Shown here: piece after piece, positions 22,299 to 61,418 of the stretch
Layout: every line of letters starts with the position of its first letter
Position numbering within the stretch: position 1 is the stretch's first letter
Source of the DNA: Nemertoderma westbladi
Lineage: Eukaryota > Animalia > Xenacoelomorpha
DNA length: 64,000 nt
Direction of reading: 5' to 3'
Assembly: GCA_032718475.1 (NCBI GenBank)
Contig: JAUCBJ010005191.1
Coordinates: forward strand, 1-64,000
Made by a program: the position numbers and the translations under genes
The notes under the pieces: generated by a model
Told to the model about the DNA's origin: nothing
Databases searched by the model: none
Seen by the model: only the letters and a program-made list of their open reading frames with translations

Positions 22299-22453
22299 AT
22301 GTACACCGTAGCAACCAATCAAACGATCGACAACCTAATGAAGGAATATAAGCGCCGCAAGGTGGCGCATTCTCGTTCTGTATTTGTCAGGAAATCCATG
22401 ATGGAAAGAAGTGATACAGAAGATCTAAGTGGACCAATAGAAGATAGAGTTAG
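22299..22453 (+). CDS. ARFGEF3: ARFGEF3/BIG3 penultimate exon
   Basis: Splice sites cattag|ATG...GTTAG|gtaagg. Encodes MYTVATNQTIDNLMKEYKRRK...PIEDRV(R) (compare BIG3 IYTMAADKTISKLMTEYKKRK). Phase 2 matches the last exon. Confidence 0.92.
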
Positions 22454-25400
22454 GTAAGGGTAGAGTTAGGTAAGGGTAGAGTTAGGTAAGGGTAGAGTTA
22501 GGTAAGGGTAGAGTTAGGTAAGGATAGAGTTAGGTAAGGGTAGAGTTAGGTAAGGGTAGAGTTAGGTAAGGGTATAGTTAGGTAAGGATAGAGTTAGGTA
22601 AGGGTAGAGTTAGGTAAGGGTAGAGTTAGGTAAGGGTAGAGTTAGGTAAGGGTTGAGTTAGGTAAGGGTATAGTTAGGTAAGGGTAGAGTTAGGTAAGGG
22701 TAGAGTTAGGTAAGGGTAGAGTTAGGTAAGGGTAGAGTTAGGTAAGGGTAGAGTTAGGTAAGGGTTGAGTTAGGTAAGGGTATAGTTAGGTAAGGGTAGA
22801 GTTAGGTAAGGGTAGAGTTAGGTAAGGGTAGAGTTAGGTAAGGGTAGAGTTAGGTAAGGGTAGAGTTAGGTAAGGGTAGAGTTAGGTAAGTAGGTAAGGG
22901 TAGAGTTAGGTAAGGGTAGAGTTAGGTAAGGGTAGAGTTAGGTAAGGGTAGAGTTAGGTAAGGGTATAGTTAGGTAAGGATAGAGTTAGGTAAGGGTAGA
23001 GTTAGGTAAGGGTAGAGTTAGGTAAGGGTAGAGTTAGGTAAGGGTTGAGTTAGGTAAGGGTATAGTTAGGTAAGGGTAGAGTTAGGTAAGGGTAGAGTTA
23101 GGTAAGGGTAGAGTTAGGTAAGGGTAGAGTTAGGTAAGGGTAGAGTTAGGTAAGGGTAGAGTTAGGTAAGTAGGTAAGGGTAGAGTTAGGTAAGGGTAGA
23201 GTTAGGTAAGGGTAGAGTTAGGTAAGGGTAGAGTTAGGTAAGGGTATAGTTAGGTAAGGATAGAGTTAGGTAAGGGTAGAGTTAGGTAAGGGTAGAGTTA
23301 GGTAAGGGTAGAGTTAGGTAAGGGTTGAGTTAGGTAAGGGTATAGTTAGGTAAGGGTAGAGTTAGGTAAGGGTAGAGTGGTAGGTAGAGTAGGTAAGGGT
23401 AGAGTTAGGTAAGGGTAGAGTTAGGTAAGGGTTGAGTTAGGTAAGGGTATAGTTAGGTAAGGGTAGAGTTAGGTAAGGGTAGAGTTAGGTAAGGGTAGAG
23501 TTAGGTAAGGGTAGAGTTAGGTAAGGGTAGAGTTAGGTAAGGAGGTAAGGGTAGAGTTAGGTAAGGGTAGAGTTAGGTAAGGGTAGAGTTAGGTAAGGGT
23601 AGAGTTAGGTAAGGGTAGAGTTAGGTAAGGGTAGAGTTAGGTAAGTAGGTAAGGGTAGAGTTAGGTAAGGGTAGAGTTAGGTAAGGGTAGAGTTAGGTAA
23701 GGGTAGAGTTAGGTAAGGGTAGAGTTAGGTAAGGGTAGAGTTAGGTAAGGGTAGAGTTAGGTAAGTAGGTAAGGGTAGAGTTAGGTAAGGGTATAGTTAG
23801 GTAAGGGTAGAGTTAGGTAAGGGTAGAGTTAGGTAAGGGTAGAGTTAGGTAAGGGTAGAGTTAGGTAAGGGTAGAGTTAGGTAAGTAGGTAAGGGTAGAG
23901 TTAGGTAAGGGTAGAGTTAGGTAAGGGTAGAGTTAGGTAAGGGTAGAGTTAGGTAAGGGTAGAGTTAGGTAAGGGTAGAGTTAGGTAAGGGTAGAGTTAG
24001 GTAAGTAGGTAAGGGTAGAGTTAGGTAAGGGTAGAGTTAGGTAAGGGTAGAGTTAGGTAAGGGTAGAGTTAGGTAAGGGTAGAGTTAGGTAAGTAGGTAA
24101 GGGTAGAGTTAGGTAAGGGTAGAGTTAGGTAAGGGTAGAGTTAGGTAAGGGTAGAGTTAGGTAAGGGTAGAGTTAGGTAAGGGTAGAGTTAGGTAAGGGT
24201 AGAGTTAGGTAAGGGTAGAGTTAGGTAAGGGTAGAGTTAGGTAAGGGTAGAGTTAGGTAAGGGTAGAGTTAGGTAAGGGTAGAGTTAGGTAAGGGTAGAG
24301 TTAGGTAAGGGTAGAGTTAGGTAAGGGTAGAGTTAGGTAAGGGTAGAGTTAGGTAAGGGTAGAGTTAGGTAAGGGTAGAGTTAGGTAAGGGTAGAGTTAG
24401 GTAAGGGTAGAGTTAGGTAAGGGTAGAGTTAGGTAAGGGTAGAGTTAGGTAAGGATAGAGTTAGGTAAGGGTAGAGTTAGGTAAGGGTAGAGTTAGGTAA
24501 GTAGGTAAGGGTAGAGTTAGGTAAGGGTAGAGTTAGGTAAGGGTAGAGTTAGGTAAGGGTAGAGTTAGGTAAGGGTAGAGTTAGGTAAGGGTAGAGTTAG
24601 GTAAGGGTAGAGTTAGGTAAGGGTAGAGTTAGGTAAGGGTAGAGTTAGGTAAGGGTAGAGTTAGGTAAGGGTAGAGTTAGGTAAGGGTAGAGTTAGGTAA
24701 GGGTAGAGTTAGGTAAGGGTAGAGTTAGGTAAGGGTAGAGTTAGGTAAGGGTAGAGTTAGGTAAGGGTAGAGTTAGGTAAGGGTAGAGTTAGGTAAGGGT
24801 AGAGTTAGGTAAGGGTAGAGTTAGGTAAGGGTAGAGTTAGGTAAGGGTAGAGTTAGGTAAGGGTAGAGTTAGGTAAGGGTAGAGTTAGGTAAGGGTAGAG
24901 TTAGGTAAGGGTAGAGTTAGGTAGTAGGTAAGGGTAGAGTTAGGTAAGGGTAGAGTTAGGTAAGGGTAGAGTTAGGTAAGGGTAGAGTTAGGTAAGGGTA
25001 GAGTTAGGTAAGGGTAGAGTTAGGTAAGTAGGTAAGGGTAGAGTTAGGTAAGGGTAGAGTTAGGTAAGGGTAGAGTTAGGTAAGGGTAGAGTTAGGTAAG
25101 GGTAGAGTTAGGTAAGGGTAGAGTTAGGTAAGGGTAGAGTTAGGTAAGGGTAGAGTTAGGTAAGGGTAGAGTTAGGTAAGGGTAGAGTTAGGTAAGGGTA
25201 GAGTTAGGTAAGGGTAGAGTTAGGTAAGGGTAGAGTTAGGTAAGGGTAGAGTTAGGTAAGGGTAGAGTTAGGTAAGGGTAGAGTTAGGTAAGGGTAGAGT
25301 TAGGTAAGGGTAGAGTTAGGTAAGGGTAGAGTTAGGTAAGGGTAGAGTTAGGTAAGGGTAGAGTTAGGTAAGGGTAGAGTTAGGTAAGGGTAGAGTTAGG

Positions 25401-28166
25401 TAAGGGTAGAGTTAGGTAAGTAGGTAAGGGTAGAGTTAGGTAAGGGTAGAGTTAGGTAAGGGTAGAGTTAGGTAAGGGTAGAGTTAGGTAAGGGTAGAGT
25501 TAGGTAAGGGTAGAGTTAGGTAAGGGTAGAGTTAGGTAAGGGTAGAGTTAGGTAAGGGTAGAGTTAGGTAAGGGTAGAGTTAGGTAAGGGTAGAGTTAGG
25601 TAAGGGTAGAGTTAGGTAAGGGTAGAGTTAGGTAAGGGTAGAGTTAGGTAAGGGTAGAGTTAGGTAAGGGTAGAGTTAGGTAAGGGTAGAGTTAGGTAAG
25701 GGTAGAGTTAGGTAAGTAGGTAAGGGTAGAGTTAGGTAAGGGTAGAGTTAGGTAAGGGTAGAGTTAGGTAAGGGTAGAGTTAGGTAAGGGTAGAGTTAGG
25801 TAAGGGTAGAGTTAGGTAAGGGTAGAGTTAGGTAAGGGTAGAGTTAGGTAAGGGTAGAGTTAGGTAAGGGTAGAGTTAGGTAAGGGTAGAGTTAGGTAAG
25901 GGTAGAGTTAGGTAAGGGTAGAGTTAGGTAAGGGTAGAGTTAGGTAAGGGTAGAGTTAGGTAAGGGTAGAGTTAGGTAAGGGTAGAGTTAGGTAAGGGTA
26001 GAGTTAGGTAAGGGTAGAGTTAGGTAAGGGTAGAGTTAGGTAAGGGTAGAGTTAGGTAAGGGTAGAGTTAGGTAAGGGTAGAGTTAGGTAAGGGTAGAGT
26101 TAGGTAAGGGTAGAGTTAGGTAAGGGTAGAGTTAGGTAAGGGTAGAGTTAGGTAAGGGTAGAGTTAGGTAAGGGTAGAGTTAGGTAAGTAGGTAAGGGTA
26201 GAGTTAGGTAAGGGTAGAGTTAGGTAAGGGTAGAGTTAGGTAAGGGTAGAGTTAGGTAAGGGTAGAGTTAGGTAAGGGTAGAGTTAGGTAAGGGTAGAGT
26301 TAGGTAAGGGTAGAGTTAGGTAAGGGTAGAGTTAGGTAAGGGTAGAGTTAGGTAAGGGTAGAGTTAGGTAAGGGTAGAGTTAGGTAAGGGTAGAGTTAGG
26401 TAAGGGTAGAGTTAGGTAAGGGTAGAGTTAGGTAAGGGTAGAGTTAGGTAAGGGTAGAGTTAGGTAAGGGTAGAGTTAGGTAAGGGTAGAGTTAGGTAAG
26501 GGTAGAGTTAGGTAAGGGTAGAGTTAGGTAAGGGTAGAGTTAGGTAAGGGTAGAGTTAGGTAAGGGTAGAGTTAGGTAAGGGTAGAGTTAGGTAAGGGTA
26601 GAGTTAGGTAAGGGTAGAGTTAGGTAAGGGTAGAGTTAGGTAAGGGTAGAGTTAGGTAAGGGTAGAGTTAGGTAAGGGTAGAGTTAGGTAAGGGTAGAGT
26701 TAGGTAAGGGTAGAGTTAGGTAAGGGTAGAGTTAGGTAAGGGTAGAGTTAGGTAAGGGTAGAGTTAGGTAAGGGTAGAGTTAGGTAAGGGTAGAGTTAGG
26801 TAAGTAGGTAAGGGTAGAGTTAGGTAAGGGTAGAGTTAGGTAAGGGTAGAGTTAGGTAAGGGTAGAGTTAGGTAAGGGTAGAGTTAGGTAAGGGTAGAGT
26901 TAGGTAAGGGTAGAGTTAGGTAAGGGTAGAGTTAGGTAAGGGTAGGTAGAGTTAGGTAAGGGTAGAGTTAGGTAAGGGTAGAGTTAGGTAAGGGTAGAGT
27001 TAGGTAAGGGTAGAGTTAGGTAAGGGTAGAGTTAGGTAAGGGTAGAGTTAGGTAAGGGTAGAGTTAGGTAAGGGTAGAGTTAGGTAAGGGTAGAGTTAGG
27101 TAAGGGTAGAGTTAGGTAAGGGTAGAGTTAGGTAAGGGTAGAGTTAGGTAAGGGTAGAGTTAGGTAAGGGTAGAGTTAGGTAAGGGTAGAGTTAGGTAAG
27201 GGTAGAGTTAGGTAAGTAGGTAAGGGTAGAGTTAGGTAAGGGTAGAGTTAGGTAAGGGTAGAGTTAGGTAAGGGTAGAGTTAGGTAAGGGTAGAGTTAGG
27301 TAAGGGTAGAGTTAGGTAAGGGTAGAGTTAGGTAAGGGTAGAGTTAGGTAAGGGTAGAGTTAGGTAAGGGTAGAGTTAGGTAAGGGTAGAGTTAGGTAAG
27401 GGTAGAGTTAGGTAAGGGTAGAGTAGGAGTAGGTAAGGGTAGAGTTAGGTAAGGGTAGAGTTAGGTAAGGGTAGAGTTAGGTAAGGGTAGAGTTAGGTAA
27501 GTAGGTAAGGGTAGAGTTAGGTAAGGGTAGAGTTAGGTAAGGGTAGAGTTAGGTAAGGGTAGAGTTAGGTAAGGGTAGAGTTAGGTAAGGGTAGAGTCAG
27601 GTAAGGGTAGAGTTAGGTAAGGGTAGAGTTAGGTAAGGGTAGAGTTAGGTAAGGGTAGAGTTAGGTAAGGGTAGAGTTAGGTAAGGGTAGAGTTAGGTAA
27701 GGATAGAGTTAGGTAAGGGTAGAGTTAGGTAAGGGTAGAGTTAGGTAAGGGTAGAGTTAGGTAAGGGTAGAGTTAGGTAAGGGTAGAGTTAGGTAAGGGT
27801 AGAGTTAGGTAAGAGTAGAGTTAGGTAAGGGTAGAGTTAGGAAGGGTAGAGTTAGGTAAGGGTAGAGTTAGGTAAGGGTAGAGTTAGGTAAGGGTAGAGT
27901 TAGGTAAGGGTAGAGTTAGGTAAGGGTAGAGTTAGGTAAGGGTAGAGTCAGGTAAGGATAGAGTTAGGTAAGGGTAGAGTTAGGTAAGGGTAGAGTTAGG
28001 TAAGGGTAGAGTTAGGTAAGGGTAGAGTTAGGTAAGGGTAGAGTTAGGTAAGGGTAGAGTTAGGTAAGGGTAGAGTTAGGTAAGAGTAGAGTTAGGTAAG
28101 GGTAGAGTTAGGTAAGGGTAGAGTTAGGTAAGGGTAGAGTTAGGTAATTGTAGAGTTAGGTAAGGA
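22445..28166 (+). repeat. 16-bp satellite (about 350 copies) whose unit is the exon/intron junction of ARFGEF3
   Basis: Unit tagagttag|gtaaggg. The first unit overlaps the last 9 nt of exon 22299-22453, and the array fills nearly the whole last intron. Confidence 0.98.
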
Positions 28167-34386: not shown

Positions 34387-34708
34387 TATTTCTTTTGATT
34401 ATTTTAGTATAATATATGCTTATAGTTGTTTGTTCTAATTAAGTACAAAAACGGTAACATTAGCATTTATTCAGTTTTCGCTTTGTAACATTAAAATATT
34501 GAAATTAAACTTCATACATACTTGCAAAGTATTTTATAGTGTTATGATTTATATCTGCCTTTTATTGGCGTTATTAATTGATCAAGGTCAAGGGGTTTTA
34601 GTGTTACAATTAAGGATGTCTTATGTTGGCTCTTACGTGTTACTGTCTCCCAACAGTTGAGGATAAAGATAAACATTGTTTATTGAAACGTCTGCAATAC
34701 ACTATGAC

Positions 34709-35692
34709 ACTACTACTAGGATCGGCATGCTGCATTGCAGCTGCATTTTTAAGAATGATATGCCGGCTTGTCGACAAAATTGCGCCGCCACAACTCCTTA
34801 TCACCCATGACATTTGCTAGATCATCCGCATCTTCAAGGCCAGTGTCCTTTAAGATGCGTCTCAAGAAAGTCATGGGCTGTCCACCATGCTTATTCACTC
34901 CATGAGGCTGCTAAAGTACAAGATTATGCACTGGCTGGTCCTCACGGCGAAAGCAATGTCCTGCAAAGCGGAGGCGATTTTGTTCTAGTGTCAAGCTTGG
35001 GGGAACCAATGAGACACCTCCAATGTTATATAGTGTCTGGTTGGAGATGTGTGCATTGTACTTGACACAATGAACCCGGCGTAGCATTCTTGTGAATGTG
35101 CCATCCAGAGATTTGGTGTCCTCAGCAGTTAGAGCCCAGCATGGACTCCCATAGAGGAGTACTGGAACTACTGCTGCTCTAAATAATCGGATCTTAAGTT
35201 TCCGATTAATTCTCGGTGACTTCCAAATCCTGGAAAGCCTATTCAAGGCTGTCCATGCCTTTCCCTTACGTATTTGAAGGTCCTCTGTCAAAATTTTGGT
35301 CTTTCTGGAGTTAATAAAAAGACCAACACTAGAAGCAGCATGTTCTAATGAGCTGAGGAGCCGTTGGGCTCCCTCTAATGATTCTGAGAGTACTCCTAAG
35401 TCATCAGCAAAGTCTAGATCAGTTAGGTACTTGGCAGGATTTCCTCGACTTCTGGAGCCAGTAGGTGGAGTTATCATCACCCCATCATCATTATGATGAT
35501 CTAAGGACATGCGTAGAACATAGTCAACCACAATTATGAACAAGAATGGTGCAAGTGTGTCTCCTGGAGGACGCCCCATAACACTTCGAATGGTTCTGTG
35601 TCACCGTCAACAGTAGACACAAATGTTGTCGAACCATCGTATACTGATCTGATTGCTGCAATAATTTCATCAGGAATCCCATATAATGAAAG
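34709..35692 (-). mobile_element. 5'-truncated, decayed RTE-like LINE (part of the RT domain to the 3' tail)
   Basis: Minus strand reads LSLYGIPDEIIAAIRSVY...GVLQ/GDTLAPFLFIIVVDYV (frameshifted)...LTDLDFADDL (RT catalytic motif)...GLFINSRKTK...RFAGHCFRR. The (TAG)n tail is at about 34709-34719. The usual KYLG segment is missing. Confidence 0.9.
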
Positions 35693-35754: not shown

Positions 35755-38700
35755 AAGGATGTCCTAGCTATAATGATCAATGTTTATGTTGGCTCTTACG
35801 TGTTACTGTCTCCCAACAGTTAAGGATGACCTAGCTATATAATGATCTATGTATATGTTGGCTCTTACGTGTTACTGTCTCCCAACAGTATTGGATGACC
35901 TAGCTATATAATGATCAATGTTTATGTTGGCTCTTACGTGTTACTGTCTCCCAACAGTATTGGATGACCTAGCTATATAATGATCAATGTTTATGTTGGC
36001 TCTTACGTGTTACTGTCTCCCAACAGTTAAGGATTAATGTTTATGTTGGCTCTTACGTGTTACTGTCTCCCAACAGTTAAGGATGACCTAGCTATATAAT
36101 GATCAATGTTTATGTTGGCTCTTACGTGTTACTGTCTCCCAACAGTTAAGGATGACCTAGCTATATAATGATCAATGTTTATGTTGGCTCTTACGTGTTA
36201 CTGTCTCCCAACAGTATTAGATGACCTAGCTATATAATGATCAATGTTTATGTTGGCTCTTACGTGTTACTGTCTCCCAACAGTTAAGGATGGCCTAGCT
36301 ATATAATGATCAATGTTTATGTTGGCTCTTACGTGTTACTGTCTCCCAACAGTATTGGACGACCTAGCTATATAATGATCAATGTTTATGTTGGCTCTTA
36401 CGTGTTACTGTCTCCCAACAGTATTGGATGACCTAGCTATATAATGATCAATGTTTATGTTGGCTCTTACGTGTTACTGTCTCCCAACAGTTAAGGATGA
36501 CCTAGCTATATAATGATCAATGTTTATGTTGGCTCTTACGTGTTACTGTCTCCCAACAGTTAAGGATGACCTAGCTATATAATGATCAATGTTTATGTTG
36601 GCTCTTACGTGTTACTGTCTCCCAACAGTTAAGGATGACCTAGCTATATAATGATCAATGCTTATGTTGGCTCTTACGTGTTACTGTCTCCCAACAGTTA
36701 AGGATGACCTAGCTATATAATGATCAATGCTTATGTTGGCTCTTACGTGTTACTGTCTCCCAACAGTTAAGGATGGCCTAGCTATATAATGATCAATGTT
36801 TATGTTGGCTCTTACGTGTTACTGTCTCCCAACAGTTAAGGATGACCTAGCTATATAATGATCAATGCTTATGTTGGCTCTTACGTGTTACTGTCTCCCA
36901 ACAGTTAAGGATGACCTAGCTATATAATGATCAATGTTTATGTTGGCTCTTACGTGTTACTGTCTCCCAACAGTATTGGATGACCTAGCTATATAATGAT
37001 CAATGCTTATGTTGGCTCTTACGTGTTACTGTCTCCCAACAGTTAAGGATGACCTAGCTATATAATGATCAATGTTTATGTTGGCTCTTACGTGTTACTG
37101 TCTCCCAACAGTTAAGGATGACCTAGCTATATAATGATCAATGCTTATGTTGGCTCTTACGTGTTACTGTCTCCCAACAGTATTGGATGACCTAGCTATA
37201 TAATGATCAATGTTTATGTTGGCTCTTACGTGTTACTGTCTCCCAACAGTTAAGGATGACCTAGCTATATAATGATCAATGTTTATGTTGGCTCTTACGT
37301 GTTACTGTCTCCCAACAGTATTGGATGACCTAGCTATATAATGATCAATGTTTATGTTGGCTCTTACGTGTTACTGTCTCCCAACAGTATTGGATGACCT
37401 AGCTATATAATGATCAATGTTTATGTTGGCTCTTACGTGTTACTGTCTCCCAACAGTTAAGGATGACCTAGCTATATAATGATCAATGTTTATGTTGGCT
37501 CTTACGTGTTACTGTCTCCCAACAGTATTGGATGACCTAGCTATATAATGATCAATGTTTATGTTGGCTCTTACGTGTTACTGTCTCCCAACAGTTAAGG
37601 ATGACCAGCTATATAATGATCAATGTTTATGTTGGCTCTTACGTGTTACTGTCTCCCAACAGTTAAGGATGACCTAGCTATATAATGATCAATGTTTATG
37701 TTGGCTCTTACGTGTTACTGTCTCCCAACAGTTAAGGATGACCTAGCTATATAATGATCAATGTTTATGTTGGCTCTTACGTGTTACTGTCTCCCAACAG
37801 TTAAGGATGACCTAGCTATATAATGATCAATGTTTATGTTGGCTCTTACGTGTTACTGTCTCCCAACAGTTAAGGATGACCTAGCTATATAATGATCAAT
37901 GTTTATGTTGGCTCTTACGTGTTACTGTCTCCCAACAGTTAAGGATGACCTAGCTATATAATGATCAATGTTTATGTTGGCTCTTACGTGTTACTGTCTC
38001 CCAACAGTTAAGGATGACCTAGCTATATAATGATCAATGTTTATGTTGGCTCTTACGTGTTACTGTCTCCCAACAGTTAAGGATGACCTAGCTATATAAT
38101 GATCAATGTTTATGTTGGCTCTTACGTGTTACTGTCTCCCAACAGTTAAGGATGACCTAGCTATATAATGATCAATGTTTATGTTGGCTCTTACGTGTTA
38201 CTGTCTCCCAACAGTATTGGATGACCTAGCTATATAATGATCAATGTTTATGTTGGCTCTTACGTGTTACTGTCTCCCAACAGTTAAGGATGACCTAGCT
38301 ATATAATGATCAATGCTTATGTTGGCTCTTACGTGTTACTGTCTCCCAACAGTTAAGGATGACCTAGCTATATAATGATCAATGCTTATGTTGGCTCTTA
38401 CGTGTTACTGTCTCCCAACAGTTAAGGATGACCTAGCTATATAATGATCAATGTTTATGTTGGCTCTTACGTGTTACTGTCTCCCAACAGTTAAGGATGA
38501 CCTAGCTATATAATGATCAATGCTTATGTTGGCTCTTACGTGTTACTGTCTCCCAACAGTTAAGGATGACCTAGCTATATAATGATCAATGTTTATGTTG
38601 GCTCTTACGTGTTACTGTCTCCCAACAGTATTGGATGACCTAGCTATATAATGATCAATGTTTATGTTGGCTCTTACGTGTTACTGTCTCCCAACAGTTA

Positions 38701-41700
38701 AGGATGACCTAGCTATATAATGATCAATGTTTATGTTGGCTCTTACGTGTTACTGTCTCCCAACAGTATTGGATGACCAGCTATATAATGATCAATGTTT
38801 ATGTTGGCTCTTACGTGTTACTGTCTCCCAACAGTATTGGGATGACCTAGCTATATAATGATCAATGTTTATGTTGGCTCTTACGTGTTACTGTCTCCCA
38901 ACAGTATTGGATGACCAGCTATATAATGATCAATGTTTATGTTGGCTCTTACGTGTTACTGTCTCCCAACAGTTAAGGATGACCTAGCTATATAATGATC
39001 AATGTTTATGTTGGCTCTTACGTGTTACTGTCTCCCAACAGTATTGGATGACCAGCTATATAATGATCAATGTTTATGTTGGCTCTTACGTGTTACTGTC
39101 TCCCAACAGTTAAGGATGACCTAGCTATATAATGATCAATGTTTATGTTGGCTCTTACGTGTTACTGTCTCCCAACAGTATTGGATGACCTAGCTATATA
39201 ATGATCAATGTTTATGTTGGCTCTTACGTGTTACTGTCTCCCAACAGTGTTGGATGACCAGCTATATAATGATCAATGTTTATGTTGGCTCTTACGTGTT
39301 ACTGTCTCCCAACAGTTAAGGATGACCTAGCTATATAATGATCAATGTTTATGTTGGCTCTTACGTGTTACTGTCTCCCAACAGTTAAGGATGACCTAGC
39401 TATATAATGATCAATGTTTATGTTGGCTCTTACGTGTTACTGTCTCCCAACAGTATTGGATGACCAGCTATATAATGATCAATGTTTATGTTGGCTCTTA
39501 CGTGTTACTGTCTCCCAACAGTTAAGGATGACCTAGCTATAATGATCAATGTTTATGTTGGCTCTTACGTGTTACTGTCTCCCAACAGTATTGGATGACC
39601 AGCTATATAATGATCAATGTTTATGTTGGCTCTTACGTGTTACTGTCTCCCAACAGTTAAGGATGACCAGCTATATAATGATCAATGTTTATGTTGGCTC
39701 TTACGTGTTACTGTCTCCCAACAGTTAAGGATGACCTAGCTATATAATGATCAATGTTTATGTTGGCTCTTACGTGTTACTGTCTCCCAACAGTTAAGGA
39801 TGACCTAGCTATATAATGATCAATGTTTATGTTGGCTCTTACGTGTTACTGTCTCCCAACAGTTAAGGATGACCAGCTATATAATGATCAATGTTTATGT
39901 TGGCTCTTACGTGTTACTGTCTCCCAACAGTTAAGGATGACCTAGCTATATAATGATCAATGTTTATGTTGGCTCTTACGTGTTACTGTCTCCCAACAGT
40001 ATTGGATGACCAGCTATATAATGATCAATGTTTATGTTGGCTCTTACGTGTTACTGTCTCCCAACAGTTAAGGATGACCTAGCTATATAATGATCAATGT
40101 TTATGTTGGCTCTTACGTGTTACTGTCTCCCAACAGTTAAGGATGACCTAGCTATATAATGATCAATGTTTATGTTGGCTCTTACGTGTTACTGTCTCCC
40201 AACAGTTAAGGATGACCTAGCTATATAATGATCAATGTTTATGTTGGCTCTTACGTGTTACTGTCTCCCAACAGTATTGGATGACCTAGCTATATAATGA
40301 TCAATGTTTATGTTGGCTCTTACGTGTTACTGTCTCCCAACAGTATGGATGACCTAGCTATATAATGATCAATGTTTATGTTGGCTCTTACGTGTTACTG
40401 TCTCCCAACAGTTATTGGATGACCTAGCTATATAATGATCAATGTTTATGTTGGCTCTTACGTGTTACTGTCTCCCAACAGTTAAGGATGACCTAGCTAT
40501 ATAATGATCAATGTTTATGTTGGCTCTTACGTGTTACTGTCTCCCAACAGTATTGGATGACCTAGCTATATAATGATCAATGTTTATGTTGGCTCTTACG
40601 TGTTACTGTCTCCCAACAGTTAAGGATGACCTAGCTATATAATGATCAATGTTTATGTTGGCTCTTACGTGTTACTGTCTCCCAACAGTTATGGATGACC
40701 TAGCTATATAATGATCAATGTTTATGTTGGCTCTTACGTGTTACTGTCTCCCAACAGTTAAGGATGACCTAGCTATATAATGATCAATGTTTATGTTGGC
40801 TCTTACGTGTTACTGTCTCCCAACAGTTAAGGATGACCTAGCTATATAATGATCAATGTTTATGTTGGCTCTTACGTGTTACTGTCTCCCAACAGTATTG
40901 GATGACCTAGCTATATAATGATCAATGTTTATGTTGGCTCTTACGTGTTACTGTCTCCCAACAGTTAAGGATGACCTAGCTATATAATGATCAATGTTTA
41001 TGTTGGCTCTTACGTGTTACTGTCTCCCAACAGTATTGGATGACCTAGCTATATAATGATCAATGTTTATGTTGGCTCTTACGTGTTACTGTCTCCCAAC
41101 AGTTAAGGATGACCTAGCTATATAATGATCAATGTTTATGTTGGCTCTTACGTGTTACTGTCTCCCAACAGTATTGGATGACCTAGCTATATAATGATCA
41201 ATGTTTATGTTGGCTCTTACGTGTTACTGTCTCCCAACAGTTAAGGATGACCTAGCTATATAATGATCAATGTTTATGTTGGCTCTTACGTGTTACTGTC
41301 TCCCAACAGTATTGGATGACCTAGCTATATAATGATCAATGTTTATGTTGGCTCTTACGTGTTACTGTCTCCCAACAGTTAAGGATGACCTAGCTATATA
41401 ATGATCAATGTTTATGTTGGCTCTTACGTGTTACTGTCTCCCAACAGTATTGGATGACCTAGCTATATAATGATCAATGTTTATGTTGGCTCTTACGTGT
41501 TACTGTCTCCCAACAGTTAAGGATGACCTAGCTATATAATGATCAATGTTTATGTTGGCTCTTACGTGTTACTGTCTCCCAACAGTATTGGATGACCTAG
41601 CTATATAATGATCAATGTTTATGTTGGCTCTTACGTGTTACTGTCTCCCAACAGTATTGGATGACCTAGCTATATAATGATCAATGTTTATGTTGGCTCT

Positions 41701-44700
41701 TACGTGTTACTGTCTCCCAACAGTTAAGGATGACCTAGCTATATAATGATCAATGTTTATGTTGGCTCTTACGTGTTACTGTCTCCCAACAGTATTGGAT
41801 GACCTAGCTATATAATGATCAATGTTTATGTTGGCTCTTACGTGTTACTGTCTCCCAACAGTTAAGGATGACCTAGCTATATAATGATCAATGTTTATGT
41901 TGGCTCTTACGTGTTACTGTCTCCCAACAGTTATGGATGACCTAGCTATATAATGATCAATGTTTATGTTGGCTCTTACGTGTTACTGTCTCCCAACAGT
42001 TAAGGATGACCTAGCTATATAATGATCAATGTTTATGTTGGCTCTTACGTGTTACTGTCTCCCAACAGTATTGGATGACCTAGCTATATAATGATCAATG
42101 TTTATGTTGGCTCTTACGTGTTACTGTCTCCCAACAGTTAAGGATGACCTAGCTATATAATGATCAATGTTTATGTTGGCTCTTACGTGTTACTGTCTCC
42201 CAACAGTATTGGATGACCTAGCTATATAATGATCAATGTTTATGTTGGCTCTTACGTGTTACTGTCTCCCAACAGTTAAGGATGACCTAGCTATATAATG
42301 ATCAATGTTTATGTTGGCTCTTACGTGTTACTGTCTCCCAACAGTATTGGATGACCTAGCTATATAATGATCAATGTTTATGTTGGCTCTTACGTGTTAC
42401 TGTCTCCCAACAGTATTGGATGACCTAGCTATATAATGATCAATGTTTATGTTGGCTCTTACGTGTTACTGTCTCCCAACAGTATTGGATGACCTAGCTA
42501 TATAATGATCAATGTTTATGTTGGCTCTTACGTGTTACTGTCTCCCAACAGTATTGGATGACCTAGCTATATAATGATCAATGTTTATGTTGGCTCTTAC
42601 GTGTTACTGTCTCCCAACAGTATTGGATGACCTAGCTATATAATGATCAATGTTTATGTTGGCTCTTACGTGTTACTGTCTCCCAACAGTATTGGATGAC
42701 CTAGCTATATAATGATCAATGTTTATGTTGGCTCTTACGTGTTACTGTCTCCCAACAGTATTGGATGACCTAGCTATATAATGATCAATGTTTATGTTGG
42801 CTCTTACGTGTTACTGTCTCCCAACAGTTATGGATGACCTAGCTATATAATGATCAATGTTTATGTTGGCTCTTACGTGTTACTGTCTCCCAACAGTATT
42901 GGATGACCTAGCTATATAATGATCAATGTTTATGTTGGCTCTTACGTGTTACTGTCTCCCAACAGTTATGGATGACCTAGCTATATAATGATCAATGTTT
43001 ATGTTGGCTCTTACGTGTTACTGTCTCCCAACAGTATTGGATGACCTAGCTATATAATGATCAATGTTTATGTTGGCTCTTACGTGTTACTGTCTCCCAA
43101 CAGTATTGGATGACCTAGCTATATAATGATCAATGTTTATGTTGGCTCTTACGTGTTACTGTCTCCCAACAGTTAAGGATGACCTAGCTATATAATGATC
43201 AATGTTTATGTTGGCTCTTACGTGTTACTGTCTCCCAACAGTATTGGATGACCTAGCTATATAATGATCAATGTTTATGTTGGCTCTTACGTGTTACTGT
43301 CTCCCAACAGTTAAGGATGACCTAGCTATATAATGATCAATGTTTATGTTGGCTCTTACGTGTTACTGTCTCCCAACAGTATTGGATGACCTAGCTATAT
43401 AATGATCAATGTTTATGTTGGCTCTTACGTGTTACTGTCTCCCAACAGTTATGGATGACCTAGCTATATAATGATCAATGTTTATGTTGGCTCTTACGTG
43501 TTACTGTCTCCCAACAGTTAAGGATGACCTAGCTATATAATGATCAATGTTTATGTTGGCTCTTACGTGTTACTGTCTCCCAACAGTATTGGATGACCTA
43601 GCTATATAATGATCAATGTTTATGTTGGCTCTTACGTGTTACTGTCTCCCAACAGTATTGGATGACCTAGCTATATAATGATCAATGTTTATGTTGGCTC
43701 TTACGTGTTACTGTCTCCCAACAGTATTGGATGACCTAGCTATATAATGATCAATGTTTATGTTGGCTCTTACGTGTTACTGTCTCCCAACAGTATTGGA
43801 TGACCTAGCTATATAATGATCAATGTTTATGTTGGCTCTTACGTGTTACTGTCTCCCAACAGTATTGGATGACCTAGCTATATAATGATCAATGTTTATG
43901 TTGGCTCTTACGTGTTACTGTCTCCCAACAGTATTGGATGACCTAGCTATATAATGATCAATGTTTATGTTGGCTCTTACGTGTTACTGTCTCCCAACAG
44001 TATTGGATGACCTAGCTATATAATGATCAATGTTTATGTTGGCTCTTACGTGTTACTGTCTCCCAACAGTATTGGATGACCTAGCTATATAATGATCAAT
44101 GTTTATGTTGGCTCTTACGTGTTACTGTCTCCCAACAGTTAAGGATGACCTAGCTATATAATGATCAATGTTTATGTTGGCTCTTACGTGTTACTGTCTC
44201 CCAACAGTATTGGATGACCTAGCTATATAATGATCAATGTTTATGTTGGCTCTTACGTGTTACTGTCTCCCAACAGTTAAGGATGACCTAGCTATATAAT
44301 GATCAATGTTTATGTTGGCTCTTACGTGGTACTGTCTCCCAACAGTATTGGATGACCTAGCTATATAATGATCAATGTTTATGTTGGCTCTTACGTGTTA
44401 CTGTCTCCCAACAGTTAAGGATGACCTAGCTATATAATGATCAATGTTTATGTTGGCTCTTACGTGTTACTGTTTCCCAACAGTTAAGGATGACCAGCTA
44501 TATAATGATCAATGTTTATGTTGGCTCTTACGTGTTACTGTTTCCCAACAGTTAAGGATGACCAGCTATATAATGATCAATGTTTATGTTGGCTCTTACG
44601 TGTTACTGTCTCCCAACAGTTAAGGATGACCTAGCTATATAATGATCAATGTTTATGTTGGCTCTTACGTGTTGCTGTCTCCCAACAGTTAAGGATGACC

Positions 44701-47700
44701 AGCTATATAATGATCAATGTTTATGTTGGCTCTTACGTGTTACTGTTTCCCAACAGTTAAGGATGACCAGCTATATAATGATCAATGTTTATGTTGGCTC
44801 TTACGTGTTACTGTTTCCCAACAGTTAAGGATGACCTAGCTATATAATGATCAATGTTTATGTTGGCTCTTACGTGGTACTGTCTCCCAACAGTATTGGA
44901 TGACCTAGCTATATAATGATCAATGTTTATGTTGGCTCTTACGTGTTACTGTCTCCCAACAGTTAAGGATGACCTAGCTATATAATGATCAATGTTTATG
45001 TTGGCTCTTACGTGTTACTGTCTCCCAACAGTATTGGATGACCTAGCTATATAATGATCAATGTTTATGTTGGCTCTTACGTGGTACTGTCTCCCAACAG
45101 TATTGTATGACCAGCTATATAATGATCAATGTTTATGTTGGCTCTTACGTGTTACTGTCTCCCAACAGTTAAGGATGACCTAGCTATATAATGATCAATG
45201 TTTATGTTGGCTCTTACGTGTTACTGTCTCCCAACAGTATTGGATGGCCTAGCTATATAATGATCAATGTTTATGTTGGCTCTTACGTGTTACTGTCTCC
45301 CAACAGTATTGGATGACCTAGCTATATAATGATCAATGTTTATGTTGGCTCTTACGTGTTATTGTCTCCCAACAGTTAAGGATGACCTAGCTATATAATG
45401 ATCAATGTTTATGTTGGCTCTTACGTGTTACTGTCTCCCAACAGTTAAGGATGACCTAGCTATATAATGATCAATGTTTATGTTGGCTCTTACGTGTTAC
45501 TGTCTCCCAACAGTATTGGATGACCTAGCTATATAATGATCAATGTTTATGTTGGCTCTTACGTGTTACTGTCTCCCAACAGTATTGGATGACCTAGCTA
45601 TATAATGATCAATGTTTATGTTGGCTCTTACGTGTTACTGTCTCCCAACAGTATTGGATGACCTAGCTATATAATGATCAATGTTTATGTTGGCTCTTAC
45701 GTGTTACTGTCTCCCAACAGTTAAGGATGACCTAGCTATATAATGATCAATGTTTATGTTGGCTCTTACGTGTTACTGTCTCCCAACAGTTAAGGATGAC
45801 CAGCTATATAATGATCAATGTTTATGTTGGCTCTTACGTGTTACTGTCTCCCAACAGTTAAGGATGACCTAGCTATATAATGATCAATGTTTATGTTGGC
45901 TCTTACGTGTTACTGTCTCCCAACAGTATTGGATGACCTAGCTATATAATGATCAATGTTTATGTTGGCTCTTACGTGTTACTGTCTCCCAACAGTATTG
46001 GATGACCTAGCTATATAATGATCAATGTTTATGTTGGCTCTTACGTGTTACTGTCTCCCAACAGTTAAGGATGACCTAGCTATATAATGATCAATGTTTA
46101 TGTTGGCTCTTACGTGTTACTGTCTCCCAACAGTTAAGGATGACCTAGCTATATAATGATCAATGTTTATGTTGGCTCTTACGTGTTACTGTCTCCCAAC
46201 AGTTAAGGATGACCTAGCTATATAATGATCAATGTTTATGTTGGCTCTTACGTGTTACTGTCTCCCAACAGTATTGGATGACCTAGCTATATAATGATCA
46301 ATGTTTATGTTGGCTCTTACGTGTTACTGTCTCCCAACAGTTAAGGATGACCTAGCTATATAATGATCAATGTTTATGTTGGCTCTTACGTGTTACTGTC
46401 TCCCAACAGTTAAGGATGACCTAGCTATATAATGATCAATGTTTATGTTGGCTCTTACGTGTTACTGTCTCCCAACAGTTAAGGATGACCTAGCTATATA
46501 ATGATCAATGTTTATGTTGGCTCTTACGTGTTACTGTCTCCCAACAGTATTGGATGACCTAGCTATATAATGATCAATGTTTATGTTGGCTCTTACGTGT
46601 TACTGTCTCCCAACAGTTAAGGATGACCTAGCTATATAATGATCAATGTTTATGTTGGCTCTTACGTGTTACTGTCTCCCAACAGTATTGGATGACCAGC
46701 TATATAATGATCAATGTTTATGTTGGCTCTTACGTGTTACTGTCTCCCAACAGTATTGGATGACCAGCTATATAATGATCAATGTTTATGTTGGCTCTTA
46801 CGTGTTACTGTCTCCCAACAGTATTGGATGACCTAGCTATATAATGATCAATGTTTATGTTGGCTCTTACGTGTTACTGTCTCCCAACAGTATTGGATGA
46901 CCAGCTATATAATGATCAATGTTTATGTTGGCTCTTACGTGTTACTGTCTCCCAACAGTATTGGATGACCTAGCTATATAATGATCAATGTTTATGTTGG
47001 CTCTTACGTGTTACTGTCTCCCAACAGTATTGGATGACCAGCTATATAATGATCAATGTTTATGTTGGCTCTTACGTGTTACTGTCTCCCAACAGTATTG
47101 GATGACCTAGCTATATAATGATCAATGTTTATGTTGGCTCTTACGTGTTACTGTCTCCCAACAGTATTGGATGACCAGCTATATAATGATCAATGTTTAT
47201 GTTGGCTCTTACGTGTTACTGTCTCCCAACAGTATTGGATGACCTAGCTATATAATGATCAATGTTTATGTTGGCTCTTACGTGTTACTGTCTCCCAACA
47301 GTATTGGATGACCTAGCTATATAATGATCAATGTTTATGTTGGCTCTTACGTGTTACTGTCTCCCAACAGTTAAGGATGACCTAGCTATATAATGATCAA
47401 TGTTTATGTTGGCTCTTACGTGTTACTGTCTCCCAACAGTATTGGATGGCCTAGCTATATAATGATCAATGTTTATGTTGGCTCTTACGTGTTACTGTCT
47501 CCCAACAGTTAAGGATGACCTAGCTATATAATGATCAATGTTTATGTTGGCTCTTACGTGTTACTGTCTTCCAACAGTATTGGATGGCCTAGCTATATAA
47601 TGATCAATGTTTATGTTGGCTCTTACGTGTTACTGTCTCCCAACAGTTAAGGATGACCAGCTATATAATGATCAATGTTTATGTTGGCTCTTACGTGTTA

Positions 47701-48120
47701 CTGTCTCCCAACAGTTAAGGATGACCTAGCTATATAATGATCAATGTTTATGTTGGCTCTTACGTGTTACTGTCTCCCAACAGTATTGGATGACCTAGCT
47801 ATATAATGATCAATGTTTATGTTGGCTCTTACGTGTTACTGTCTCCCAACAGTTAAGGATGACCTAGCTATATAATGATCAATGTTTATGTTGGCTCTTA
47901 CGTGTTACTGTCTCCCAACAGTATTGGATGACCTAGCTATATAATGATCAATGTTTATGTTGGCTCTTACGTGTTACTGTCTCCCAACAGTATTGGATGA
48001 CCAGCTATATAATGATCTATGTATATGTTGGCTCTTACGTGTTACTGTCTCCCAACAGTATTGGATGACCTAGCTATATAATGATCAATGTTTATGTTCG
48101 CTCTTACGTTACTGTCTCCC
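35755..48120. repeat. 69-bp satellite, about 180 copies (12.4 kb), with two main variants
   Basis: Unit ggatgacctagctatataatgatcaatgtttatgttggctcttacgtgttactgtctcccaacag(ttaa/tatt). One orphan partial unit lies at about 34611-34674. Confidence 0.98.
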
Positions 48121-48473
48121 AGTTTCACTGTTGTTTCTCTTAGTCCTTCATTGTATGTTATGTTAGCAATAATGCAGAATGTTATTTATTTACTGTTGTA
48201 TTTATTTATCATATAATTTATTTATTTAGTGTTTTGTTACTATAAGTGCTAAACTATCTGTAAATTAAAACTTTGGTTGAAATGGGGGAATTATATGCTT
48301 TTTAAACTGCTTCATCACCGATCGGGGAGGGGGGTCTTCAAGTTATCTTTACCGGAACCAAAGTAATTTAGGAAACAGAATGGAAGGGTTTACTGTTGAA
48401 GATCACCCATGGTGGTGAACAGGCATTCCTTTAGGAAACAGAGTGGAAGGGTTTACTGTGGAAGATCACCAAT

Positions 48474-48561
48474 GGTGGCTGAACTGGTTAGCGCTACAAC
48501 TGATGAGACCTGTTAGGCCGAAACGTACGAGTAGCGCTGGTTCAAACCCCGGTGACGTTTT
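48474..48561 (+). ncRNA. tRNA-like Pol III unit or SINE head containing a minimal type I hammerhead ribozyme motif (probably a slightly decayed copy)
   Basis: A box TGGCTGAACTGG (48476-48487); agcgctac-aa-CTGATGA-gacctgttaggcc-GAAAC-GTA-cga-gtagcgct; B box GGTTCAAACCC (48539-48549); TTTT at 48558-48561. Confidence 0.7.
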
Positions 48562-49226: not shown

Positions 49227-50099
49227 CTAAAGTTTTGAACTTTTGCGATCCATCATTCCTTGTATCAGATCGATAGGCAATGGGAATACAATAGTAGAGT
49301 TCTTCTCCGCCGATATGGTTGTCAGGGTCTGCATGTATCTCAGTTGCAGGGCTATAGGCGATTCAGAAATAACATCGGAAGCCTCTTTGAGGGCCTTCGA
49401 GGCTTTCCACTCACCTTCAGCAGCAATAACTTTAGCCTTAGCTTCACGAGCTGCTTCGGCCTCAGCTGCCATCGCTCGCTGCATTTGAACTGGTAAACGA
49501 ACATCTTTAACCTCAACCCTCTCAACCTTCACTCCCCAAGGATCAGTGGCCGAATCAAGCATGGTCTGCATGCTATGACTGATATGCTCTCGATCAGACA
49601 AAACCTCGAAAAGATTTTTGGTTCCCAGAACGTTTCGCAAGGTCGTGGCTGAGAGTAGACGTGTTGATCTGTCAAAATGCTCCACATTTGTTATGGAAAT
49701 AATGGGATTGAAGACCCTGTAGTAGACAACAGCATCAACAGCAACTGTAACAGAATCTTTGGTCAGGATCTCTTGGGGAGGCACGTCAAACGAGACGGTT
49801 CTTAGATCGACTTTTTGGTAGTTGTCGGTGCACGGTAGAATGCAGAAAAGACCGGGTCCTTTCGCCCCACCTTGGAGGATTCGACCCAGACGAAATATAA
49901 CAGCTCTTTCATATTCCTGTACGATTTTGAAACACATGAAGATGCTGATAGGGAAGGTAAGAACGACAGCGATAAAACTTAGGAAAATCAATATGTAGTC
50001 GCATATTCCTCTTTTGGGGGCTTGACCTCTGTCATTGTATAATTCGCCTTCACTGCCCACCCGAGCTGAGGTATTATCCATAATAGGTAAATCAATCAT
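49227..50099 (-). CDS. STOM: Stomatin (band 7/SPFH family), intronless
   Basis: 290 aa with a hydrophobic hairpin, then CFKIVQEYERAVIFRLGR..GGAKGPGLF.ILPC.D, VDLRTVSFDVPPQEILTKDSVTVAVDAVVY, WGVKVERVEVKDVRLP.QMQRAMAAEAEA and ALQLRY.QTL..ISAEKNSTIVFPLPID. Confidence 0.97.
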   Translation of the reverse strand: MIDLPIMDNTSARVGSEGELYNDRGQAPKRGICDYILIFLSFIAVVLTFPISIFMCFKIVQEYERAVIFRLGRILQGGAKGPGLFCILPCTDNYQKVDLRTVSFDVPPQEILTKDSVTVAVDAVVYYRVFNPIISITNVEHFDRSTRLLSATTLRNVLGTKNLFEVLSDREHISHSMQTMLDSATDPWGVKVERVEVKDVRLPVQMQRAMAAEAEAAREAKAKVIAAEGEWKASKALKEASDVISESPIALQLRYMQTLTTISAEKNSTIVFPLPIDLIQGMMDRKSSKL

Positions 50100-56055: not shown

Positions 56056-56394
56056 GCTCTATTTGAAGACGTACTTGCGGAGCCAGAAGGGGCCCATTCC
56101 ATCGACTGTCTATGGAAGCTAACCTACCAGTGTTTCACCGGTACAAAGTCGGTCTGCTATATGATACTGACCACGATATTGGGTCTACCTCTTGCTTTCG
56201 CTTGGGGCTTGTCTTTCGCCTGCATGTCGTTCGAATTGGTCTGGTGTGTGACCCCGCTGCTAAAGATATACTTTGTGGAGTTGGCGGCCTACAGAATGCT
56301 GTACACCAGCGTGATTCGTTGTGTTTGTGATCCCTGCTTCGAGTCATGTGGTCGTATATGTGGCGACATGAAGGTCACCCAAGTCAAAGGATAA
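56056..56394 (+). CDS. CAV: Caveolin, second coding exon (132 aa in total)
   Basis: Splice site ctaactttatag|GCT. Encodes ALFEDVLAEPEGAHSIDCLWK (FEDVIAEP signature), the hydrophobic segment ILTTILGLPLAFAWG...WCVTP and CDPCFESCGR. Confidence 0.95.
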   Translation, partial: ALFEDVLAEPEGAHSIDCLWKLTYQCFTGTKSVCYMILTTILGLPLAFAWGLSFACMSFELVWCVTPLLKIYFVELAAYRMLYTSVIRCVCDPCFESCGRICGDMKVTQVKG

Positions 56395-58986: not shown

Positions 58987-60285
58987 TTATGTTGAGTTAA
59001 AATGCAGTCGGCTGCGCCCTATAGAACCACTGAGACCCTGGGTTGGTATGGCGATCTGTCTGGCTGGCGGAGTGGCGCCACCCAGCGACGGACCGCTGCA
59101 CATAGAACCTGTGGGAGAAGGACAGGGAGGAGTGCGTCCCCTGGGAGCTGGGCAGGTGGGAGTGCGTCCCTTGGGAGCTGGGCAAGGGGGAGTGCGTCCC
59201 TTGGGAGCTGGGCAGGGGGGAGTGCGTCCCTTGGGGGTGAGCCCCGGCAGCCTCCCAACGGGCTCCACTATACGCCCATCCACTATCACTCGTTTCATAC
59301 TGACCCGTTGCTGCTGGCTGCCGGGGGGCGTAGCGTTGTACCCTGCGGGCGGTGTGTAGACGTACCCCGGTGTAGAGCGGCCGGATCTCTGGGAACTACC
59401 TAGGTAGGGAGGGGTGCAGCCTGGTCTATCGCCCACCCTGTTGGGTAGGTAAGGGGGCGTGCACCCAGCATTGGCGAGGTTGATTGGTGGAGTGCAACTC
59501 TGTTGGAACGGGGAGTAATCCATAGGGGATACCGGGTATTTAATGGGCACCGAGGAGCCAGACATGGGGCTATATCTGTAAGAAGCACAACCGGGTGTGA
59601 CCACAACACGCTGCGATTGTTGCTGGTAGATATTCGCAGTCCCATTGGCACCCGTAGGTTGACTTTGTTGATTACCTCTCACCGCTATTGGTTGGCCACG
59701 CCCGCCAATAGCAGCAGCCGTATGGACGCCCAACCCACCAATAGCAGGTCGTTGCTGCACCTGAGTCCCACCACCTCGTCTGTATTGAATCACTTCGTTT
59801 CTAAGATTTAGGTTTTCCCTTTTCAGATCTTCCATTTCGCGTTGAAGCTTTTCCGTCCCGGTTTGACATGTTTGTAGCGTCTCCTTTTCACTTTGCAGTT
59901 TTTCGATTACCTTTTGCATACTTTTCATTTGCTCCCCATATTTCGATCTGTCTCTTTCGAGAACCTTATTTTTTGTCATTAGGAACGCCATCAGACGAGA
60001 TCTGTGTTGCTTCTGGAATTTAGTGACACGGCTGACTTCGGTCAAACACTTCTGAATATGCGCTTCCGCATCCGCAAAAAACGATTGAATTTCAGGCCTG
60101 AGTGGGTTGACCAATGGCACGAGGTTACATGGGGAGCAATCACACATGTAACATTTGTCCCGTTTAACCTCAACAGTACAGGTTTCGCAATAGAGATGAC
60201 CACACGCTGATAAGAAGAACTTTTTCTTTTCTGGTCCATTCGGTTGGATGCTACATTTATTGCAATGAACAATATCGATATTCAT
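58987..60285 (-). CDS. RNF212: RNF212/RNF212B-like (Zip3/ZHP-3/Vilya family) meiotic RING E3 ligase, intronless
   Basis: N-terminal VHCNKC...FFLSACGHLYCETC...C..C RING, then L.PEIQSFFAD, VTKFQKQHRSRL, a coiled coil and a long S/P-rich disordered tail. Confidence 0.88.
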   Translation of the reverse strand: MNIDIVHCNKCSIQPNGPEKKKFFLSACGHLYCETCTVEVKRDKCYMCDCSPCNLVPLVNPLRPEIQSFFADAEAHIQKCLTEVSRVTKFQKQHRSRLMAFLMTKNKVLERDRSKYGEQMKSMQKVIEKLQSEKETLQTCQTGTEKLQREMEDLKRENLNLRNEVIQYRRGGGTQVQQRPAIGGLGVHTAAAIGGRGQPIAVRGNQQSQPTGANGTANIYQQQSQRVVVTPGCASYRYSPMSGSSVPIKYPVSPMDYSPFQQSCTPPINLANAGCTPPYLPNRVGDRPGCTPPYLGSSQRSGRSTPGYVYTPPAGYNATPPGSQQQRVSMKRVIVDGRIVEPVGRLPGLTPKGRTPPCPAPKGRTPPCPAPKGRTPTCPAPRGRTPPCPSPTGSMCSGPSLGGATPPARQIAIPTQGLSGSIGRSRLHFNST

Positions 60286-61418
60286 CGCAACAAATTAATA
60301 CAAGGATCGATAATTGGATATAATACGAGCGTTTAGATAAACTACAGGATTAAGTTATGTTCAACAACGATGGTCCTGTCATTCGGTCAACCATCTTAGA
60401 ACGAAAACATCACATATTTGTTTATGGGTTTGCTACTGTCTCACAGTAGATATGATATGCGTTGCTGGTTACGTACAGAAATACAGTTATGACGATAACC
60501 TATAGCTTTTACACAAGCGGATTACAGTGTAAGAGCCTTAAAAGCGTAGTGAATAATAGTTACCCATATCACACAAGAAGCATTAAGAAATTGAAACTAA
60601 GCAAAACAGTGTCTAGTCTGACAGTGTCCGACAGATATATGCTTTTTTCCACTGAATCTTGCGCTTGCATGGGGGTATATTATAGTAAATGTTTTGGGTG
60701 ATTTTGGTGCGAAATTTTATTGTGATCAATAATCCGATGCCGACTGATGCCCAGCTTACATCATTGAGGATTTTGTGTAATTAACAATATAAAAAATTGT
60801 CCCCAGCAACGGTTAAGACAATTTATCCGATTGCTTCCATATATTTTAGTTTTTAAATTTACTGTTGAAAATGAACAAATGGTACGTAATTCCATTACAA
60901 TTAAACTTATATCACCGGAATCCCCATATTATGGCGCACTTTTAGACAATTTTCATTTCAGTCACACGTCACATAGGCCTATTTTTGCTCAAGTTAAAGA
61001 TAGGTTTTGAATGTATTTGGCTGCAAGTTTAAATTAATACATCCATTGTAATTTTGGACAGATTTTTTAAATATATTAAGATGCAAGCTGGAATTTAAGA
61101 TTGAAGTTGATGCAATGGTATGTTAGGCCTATTCAATTAATTTTTAAAATTAATTTCTGAATTTAACTGTACAAACTACCGATACAATATAGCACTCTTT
61201 ATAACTTGAAACCTGGGCTGCATCCATTGGAATAATAGTGAGTAAAAACGTTCTGGAACACACCCCTGTGGGTACATTTACTATATACTGTACTTCCATG
61301 CAAGGTATAATGCAATGCAATATCTTCCGGACTAGGCCTATTTGCCTATACAGTAGGCCTACTAAACCTCTAGAATCGGCAGATCGGTAGGCCTATTATA
61401 CTGCTATACAGCCATTCC

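Follow-up and report, generated by a model that had tools for sequence, protein, structure and literature searches.

The window, a stretch of 64,000 nucleotides from Nemertoderma westbladi (contig JAUCBJ010005191.1, positions 1 to 64,000), carries several single-ORF genes, namely a Bax1-I/GHITM-like gene (2639-3769), pyruvate kinase (11775-13451), caveolin (56056-56394) and a RING gene (58987-60294), separated from one another by large tandem arrays. Positions 22445-28165 are filled by a 16-nt unit of extreme GC skew, repeated about 365 times; the unit contains TTAGG and we take the array to be telomere-like. At 17973-18940 lies a tandem array of a 15-bp unit, followed directly by a short inverted array of that same unit. 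A LINE-type reverse transcriptase fragment on the reverse strand (34911-35600; RVT_1, E 5.5e-9) adjoins a satellite with a 69-bp unit (36036-48121, about 175 copies), and part of this unit is also found on the other side of the fragment, near 34620. Further on, an intron-free stomatin/MEC-2-like gene occupies 49227-50099 of the reverse strand. Most of the best 120 of its 7,676 homologs are 70-80% identical, and they come from molluscs, cnidarians, flatworms, acoels and others. Its stop codon lies 669 nt from the element that concerns us here, which is antisense to the gene and could lie in its 3' UTR. The features of this element and of the repeat that adjoins it are the following.

48354..48487, + strand: a separate, far more abundant repeat with two internal units of 63 bp, recognised from contig depth and back-joints; it overlaps the A box
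48475..48558, + strand: damaged copy of a tRNA-hammerhead repeat; contigs of the family align across it and continue beyond both ends
48476..48487, + strand: A-box-like motif (D-arm region), from the sequence
48478-81/48489-92, + strand: D-stem remnant, 4/4 pairs
48490..48499, + strand: 5' arm of hammerhead stem I, including 48496-98, which are absent from most long family contigs of run X2
48500..48506, + strand: hammerhead core C3-A9 (CTGATGA), in the only such motif pair of the window
48507..48519, + strand: stem II, 5 bp with a 3-nt loop; position 48508 is A here and G in nearly all of the family
48520..48531, + strand: GAAAC core and palindromic stem III region, with ACGT at 48523-26 and CGTACG at 48524-29
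48531..48538, + strand: 3' arm of stem I, overlapping the 5' strand of the T stem, from sequence and fold
48539..48549, + strand: B-box-like motif (T-loop region), from the sequence; the T stem has 3/5 pairs in the window copy
48558..48561, + strand: run of four T, from the sequence; flank, or remnant of the T5-T8 run of the family

An earlier note on this DNA had listed these motifs, and on reading the sequence we found every one of them where the note had placed it: an 8-bp stem (48490-97/48531-38), GAAAC at 48520-24 and GTA at 48525-27. The core of a type I hammerhead, CUGANGA and GAAA around a stem II closed by G10.1-C11.1, is present. The copy is single, not tandem, and is damaged in several ways. 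It lacks the first 6 nt and the 3' end of the family, its stem II has 4/5 pairs with one A-C mismatch, and 2 nt (48498-99) stand opposite 3 nt (48528-30) beside the core. The TTTT at 48558-61 may be flank or a remnant, because the T-run of the family lies about 10 nt further on. Neither a target-site duplication nor a tail was seen at the window copy, and the tail motif of the family is absent from the window.

Chance is a very unlikely origin for this combination of motifs. The pattern of the two core motifs followed by a B box matched once in the window, for an expectation of 0.01, and this was reached in 1/100 shuffles; with the A box in front, there were 0 matches in 40 Mb simulated from the dinucleotides of the window. 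The window copy alone does not fold better than its shuffles (z from -1.2 to +0.1 over five stretches). A search with the hammerhead and tRNA models of Rfam had been proposed as a check, and neither of them matched this damaged copy at E up to 10; nothing in Rfam reached the gathering score on it, and the sole match at relaxed E was a weak C/D snoRNA (E 2.8). ARAGORN called no tRNA at the element, and no parent tRNA was identified by ARAGORN or Rfam. Relaxed ARAGORN with introns gave two overlapping low-grade calls on opposite strands, which were not taken as evidence.

The earlier note had also pointed to a tandem duplication in the 5' flank of the element. The duplication is real (48367-48423 and 48430-48487 are identical at 53/58 positions), and we rejected it as a part of the element: it belongs to a separate repeat whose summed contig depth reaches 2.9-4.1 million in runs X1, X2 and X4, for about 30 in the flanks. 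Even if every base had been counted 31 times, this amounts to at least 3,000-5,700 copies. Many contigs inside this repeat rejoin it 62-72 nt back. The end of its unit resembles an A box over a short similarity, and it is there that the two elements are fused, either by insertion or by later deletion. Its loose ends suggest short inverted motifs near the ends and a small 3' hairpin, a layout like that of MITEs or Helentron-type non-autonomous elements.

The evidence on the family of the hammerhead element comes from contigs of public DNA runs, four of them (X1-X4) from the same organism and at most three samples, X2 and X4 being one sample; in X3 only 11 contigs aligned on the element. Flank depth was 13-37 where the flanks were covered. 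The ratio of depth at 48508, a position upstream of where short contigs begin to overlap, to flank depth was 420 in X1, 1,094 in X2, 47 in X3 and 1,751 in X4. Summed contig depth is not true copy number, and a fair reading of these ratios is a family of hundreds to about two thousand copies. The copies are dispersed, because several contigs of single-copy depth lead into unlike flanks of 80 to 810 nt (X2 records 4, 6, 7 and 8; X3 records 11 and 14). The window element is hence one member of a dispersed family of high copy number, as had been supposed, and many dispersed copies are what a tRNA-derived SINE would show. The locus itself is real and not an artefact of assembly, because in X1, X2 and X4 its junction with the right flank is spanned by contigs of single-copy depth. 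In X2, the allele of the window copy differs by one letter and three gaps over 205 nt; 142 of the 258 contigs are less than 90% alike to the window copy and none of the 258 is 99% alike. No contig of runs X6 and X7, from organisms B and C, aligned to the element, which is not proof of its absence there.

The family also tells which of the defects of the window copy are its own. The prediction that relatives would repair stem II was borne out: position 48508 is G in 98-100% of the family depth in all four runs, and this restores the pairing. The three bases predicted before the core were not recovered. Around 90% of the X2 depth matches the A of the window at 48499, and 48496-98 are missing from 19 long X2 contigs that together make up about 1,100 of a depth of 1,350 (depth is about 1,350 at 48498 and jumps to about 29,700 at 48499). 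With these 3 nt absent from most copies, a 7-bp stem I abuts the core. In this majority form stem I has 7/7 and stem II 5/5 pairs, and the hammerhead part folds with a z of -3.98, a value as low being found in 0/500 shuffles. The strongest contig of X3 (depth 1,108) has one extra base in the stem I arm, and there are at least two forms in the family because this dominant contig carries the longer arm. Another contig of X3, record 12, is 95 nt long (65 + 30), aligns to 48499-48536 and has a depth of 241 versus 37. It fits a collapsed tandem array of a 65-nt unit with A box and hammerhead and without B box, in about six copies by depth.

The ends of the family complete the tRNA frame. In loose contig ends, GGGAAAG stands immediately 5' of the A box, and on the 3' side CTTTCTC is followed by A and by 5-8 consecutive T (20 contigs, with an agreement of 0.82 in X2). 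The two 7-mers form 7/7 pairs of an acceptor-like stem that is absent from the window copy; its 3' strand is set off from the T stem by 6-7 nt more than a real tRNA has. Among the longest contigs listed, three start 6-7 nt before 48475, i.e. at tRNA position 1. The strongest contig of X3 has a different 3' end, with a short hairpin ahead of the T-run, and extends beyond 48558 for 54 nt, of which about 40 nt lie past the T-run. The median length of loose ends behind 48557 is 20 nt. A and B boxes in a tRNA-like frame, a D stem with 4/4 pairs, acceptor-like 7-mers and a T-run are thus found together, as in tRNA-derived SINEs. The claim of a tRNA-like unit held for this frame, which in other copies extends to the acceptor-like stem and the T-run. 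It did not hold for the RNA, which is predicted to be a rod. Stem I draws one strand from each of the two tRNA stems, 3' from the D stem and 5' from the T stem, and in the predicted ensemble it has a probability of 0.95-1.0, the D and T stems one of 0.0. A cloverleaf was therefore rejected for the RNA of the element, and the tRNA would persist as promoter boxes and ends. The hammerhead does occupy the place that had been assigned to it, between the two boxes, where a tRNA has its anticodon and variable arms.

Where the hammerhead might cut depends on the register. Two cleavage triplets are conceivable, GTA at 48525-27, to which stem I is not adjacent, and GAG at 48529-31, to which it is adjacent in the majority form. 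The GTA register shows the layout of the minimal hammerheads of PMC4209133, and stem I abuts this site neither in the window copy nor in the majority form. In the latter, with stem I abutting 48531, the 6-nt palindrome 48524-29 makes up stem III and 48529-31 become the triplet. For that form we rejected the predicted cleavage after GTA at 48527, since the register moves to 48531. A stem I that lies beside both C3 and the cleavage site is lacking in the window copy and present in the majority form, for the 48529-31 register only. The palindromes have self-duplex energies of -3.7 (ACGT) and -8.6 kcal/mol (the 6-nt CGTACG). At 48529-31 the window copy has GAG, a non-NUH triplet with no U16.1 and with G17. 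In the predicted fold C3 pairs with 48531 at a probability of 1.0 and U4 with 48530 at 0.83, and the window copy is likely to be locked because its GAG is predicted to pair with these core bases. The suspicion that this copy is inactive is thus probably right. In G17 hammerheads a C3-G17 pair makes a trapped state, and G17 variants with tertiary contacts can still cut (PMC3884650). For the family no variant is listed at 48530 or 48531, in tables that are incomplete (48519 and 48527 stand in one listing and are missing from the other). The X3 contigs carry 1-6 unlisted differences, and one of 34 nt has three of them within 48521-54, so that the triplet of the family may differ from GAG.

With moderate confidence, we read the window element as a damaged copy of a tRNA-derived SINE that would be transcribed by Pol III and copied, as uncut RNA, by the reverse transcriptase of a Penelope element. 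What we observed directly is the order of the motifs, the dispersal of the copies, the restored stem II and abutting stem I of most copies, and the acceptor-like ends with their T-run; the steps that would join them are as follows. A type I hammerhead with palindromic stem III would have replaced the anticodon and variable arms of a tRNA and recruited strands of the D and T stems as its stem I, leaving the tRNA to persist as promoter boxes in the DNA. A palindromic stem III is a typical trait of the hammerheads of Penelope elements, and such hammerheads did not cut as monomers (PMC4209133). In this family a lone RNA would be unable to form stem III, and a GAG triplet would trap the core. Monomers would then stay whole, with A and B boxes together, and only whole RNA would give daughters with a working promoter. 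Because the hammerhead sits between the two boxes, a cut would split the promoter and leave neither piece with one. The dispersed copies open with tRNA position 1 and keep the A box ahead of the B box; they should therefore derive from uncut RNA or from more-than-unit copies of circles. The hammerhead fold might serve mainly as a mark of Penelope-type identity, with cutting rare or limited to dimers. For an active Penelope element assayed in vitro, PMC11167929 reports no impairment of insertion by hammerhead mutants. The tail of Penelope elements measures 30-40 bp (PMC8557442), similar to the roughly 40 nt found past the T-run in the strongest X3 contig, and animal retrozymes have been proposed to depend on Penelope elements (preprint 10.64898/2026.07.22.740005). 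Copies have sequence in common beyond the T-run, which a transcript ending at that run could not supply; this calls for read-through of the terminator or for an element longer than the one we see. Among the window ORFs of at least 100 aa, 7 of 56 of which were scanned for domains, we saw no Penelope ORF with reverse transcriptase and GIY-YIG, and no reverse transcriptase other than the LINE-type fragment.

One might speculate that the hammerhead is instead a self-destruct switch, whereby single transcripts would remain intact and be copied, and abundant ones would pair through the palindromic stem III and cut each other between the A and B boxes, leaving daughters without promoter; we find this unlikely. 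Subfamilies with a locked triplet would then be escape mutants and the family would limit its own RNA, which is part of the same reading and just as doubtful. On another reading, which is that of the earlier note, the family would be a retrozyme that actively cleaves itself and brings its own Pol III promoter, its young copies carrying an NUH triplet, cutting as dimers in read-through or tandem RNA and circularising, and only more-than-unit cDNA restoring the order of the boxes. This would agree with Sm-alpha and with the retrozyme model (PMC6765202, PMC7229834), with the intact core and stems of the majority form, with the stability of its 6-nt palindrome as a self-duplex and with unlisted differences in 48521-54 that could include the triplet. 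The 95-nt X3 contig, which joins 48536 back to 48499 through an A-box-like linker, would be its short tandem array; yet the unit of that array has no B box, and this host genome makes tandem arrays from many sequences. It is also at odds with a window copy that, like its X2 allele, has no usable site in either register, with the absence of any listed variant at 48530 or 48531 in the incomplete table, and with dispersed copies that start at tRNA position 1 and not at the cleavage site. On balance we hold such an active retrozyme to be possible, if rather improbable. Doubtful too is the idea of a longer Penelope terminal repeat that has this element as its tRNA-derived head, in which case the short copies would be what is left of a truncated protein-coding element and no independent SINE. 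Among the minimal hammerheads of animal genomes, most are single Penelope remnants (PMC4209133), and here common sequence does continue beyond the T-run. But the loose ends behind 48557 are short, and the T-run comes immediately after the acceptor-like strand, in the manner of a full Pol III unit. At the 5' end, where truncation is usual for Penelope copies (preprint 10.64898/2026.07.22.740005), this family begins sharply at tRNA position 1.

Spread at the level of DNA, as a passenger of the abundant neighbour or by tandem amplification, or descent from a family of host small-RNA genes, would make the hammerhead a fossil. The fusion with the abundant repeat at a short similar stretch, the sequence shared past the terminator and the tandem arrays that make up much of the window all speak for such a reading. 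In other copies, however, the acceptor-like 5' end stands in place of the abundant repeat. The X2 copies are too diverged for a conserved gene family, and nothing aligned in organisms B and C, which may be only distant relatives. Both variants together seem distinctly unlikely. Finally, the hammerhead look might be an accident, CTGATGA being an old anticodon loop or a C box and GAAA the loop of a variable arm. Prokaryotic tRNA-like loci do carry CTGAYGA and GAAAC between the boxes (an A box is present in 14 of 120 metagenome matches), and the sole Rfam match was to a C/D snoRNA. Yet none of these 14 loci has a stem II of at least 4 bp, whereas this family keeps a 5-bp stem exactly between the two core motifs, and no stem encloses CTGATGA directly as it would a loop. 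An accident is accordingly very improbable.

It is not settled what maintains hammerheads in Penelope elements and in their passengers: cutting is weak in vitro (PMC4209133) and, in the one active Penelope element tested, was not needed for insertion (PMC11167929). The cost of cutting is unusually clear in the present family, because cutting would destroy its promoter. If a large expansion carries the locked triplet, this would point to a role other than cutting, e.g. recognition by the reverse transcriptase. If the triplet is intact, it would point to cutting controlled by dimers or to copying from circles.

We also searched for the nested layout elsewhere. Neither the 120 metagenome loci (of about 190 estimated) nor the 120 viral loci (of about 560 estimated) included one with an A box and a stem II of at least 4 bp. 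A stricter viral scan gave one match, attributable to chance, the pattern specific to the family had 0 viral matches, and phage records gave none. The single prokaryotic match of the family pattern is a different hammerhead-like motif on a bacterial contig (L122:301-324, - strand), which has the same 5-bp stem II as the family form and lacks the tRNA frame. A viral contig (L177, + strand) carries a canonical-looking type I hammerhead outside any tRNA. Eight prokaryotic tRNA-like loci (L021, L051, L052, L072, L076, L093, L100 and L109) have an insert with CTGAYGA and GAAAC, and without stem II, in the anticodon region; these are probably tRNA introns that match by chance.

Among known systems, tRNA-derived SINEs have A and B boxes, a tRNA frame from position 1, a T-run and high copy number. 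The present family shares all of these. It differs in that the insert lies inside the tRNA head and not downstream of it, and no LINE-like tail, poly(A) or target-site duplication was identified. Engineered tRNA cassettes carry a hammerhead in the anticodon loop, between the A and B boxes, for expression by Pol III. Their topology is the same, but they are synthetic and cut other RNAs, whereas here the arrangement is natural and the substrate strand belongs to the same molecule.

The minimal, small-palindrome hammerheads of Penelope elements resemble ours in their intact core, the G10.1-C11.1 pair, the palindromic positions 15.2-16.2 and loop 3, and mostly single dispersed copies (PMC4209133). 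Unlike those described there, ours has no extra base before stem II, a stem I of at least 7 bp instead of 4-5, a tRNA frame, no linked ORF that we could see and, in the abutting register of the window copy, a non-NUH triplet. Metazoan non-LTR retrozymes are likewise non-coding repeats with type I hammerheads for which Penelope machinery has been proposed (PMC7229834, PMC7761336). They are defined as tandem, although monomers can form any share of a family (preprint 10.64898/2026.07.22.740005), and they are described as promoter-less; our family is mainly dispersed and has A and B boxes. In the literature covered, which included few subscription papers and no Repbase reports, and where preprint supplements might list some, no hammerhead nested between A and B boxes was found. 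The nearest relatives in composition are the Sm-alpha and Sj-alpha repeats of Schistosoma, also short non-coding invertebrate repeats with a Pol III promoter and a type I hammerhead. There the parts stand in series, promoter then hammerhead and often in tandem, as far as the layout is given in the review (PMC6765202). The window element does not follow that order, as its hammerhead lies between the boxes and shares strands with the D and T stems. The combination of a hammerhead with a Pol III promoter is thus known from Sm-alpha, and what is new here, as far as the reports found go, is the nesting of the one between the boxes of the other.
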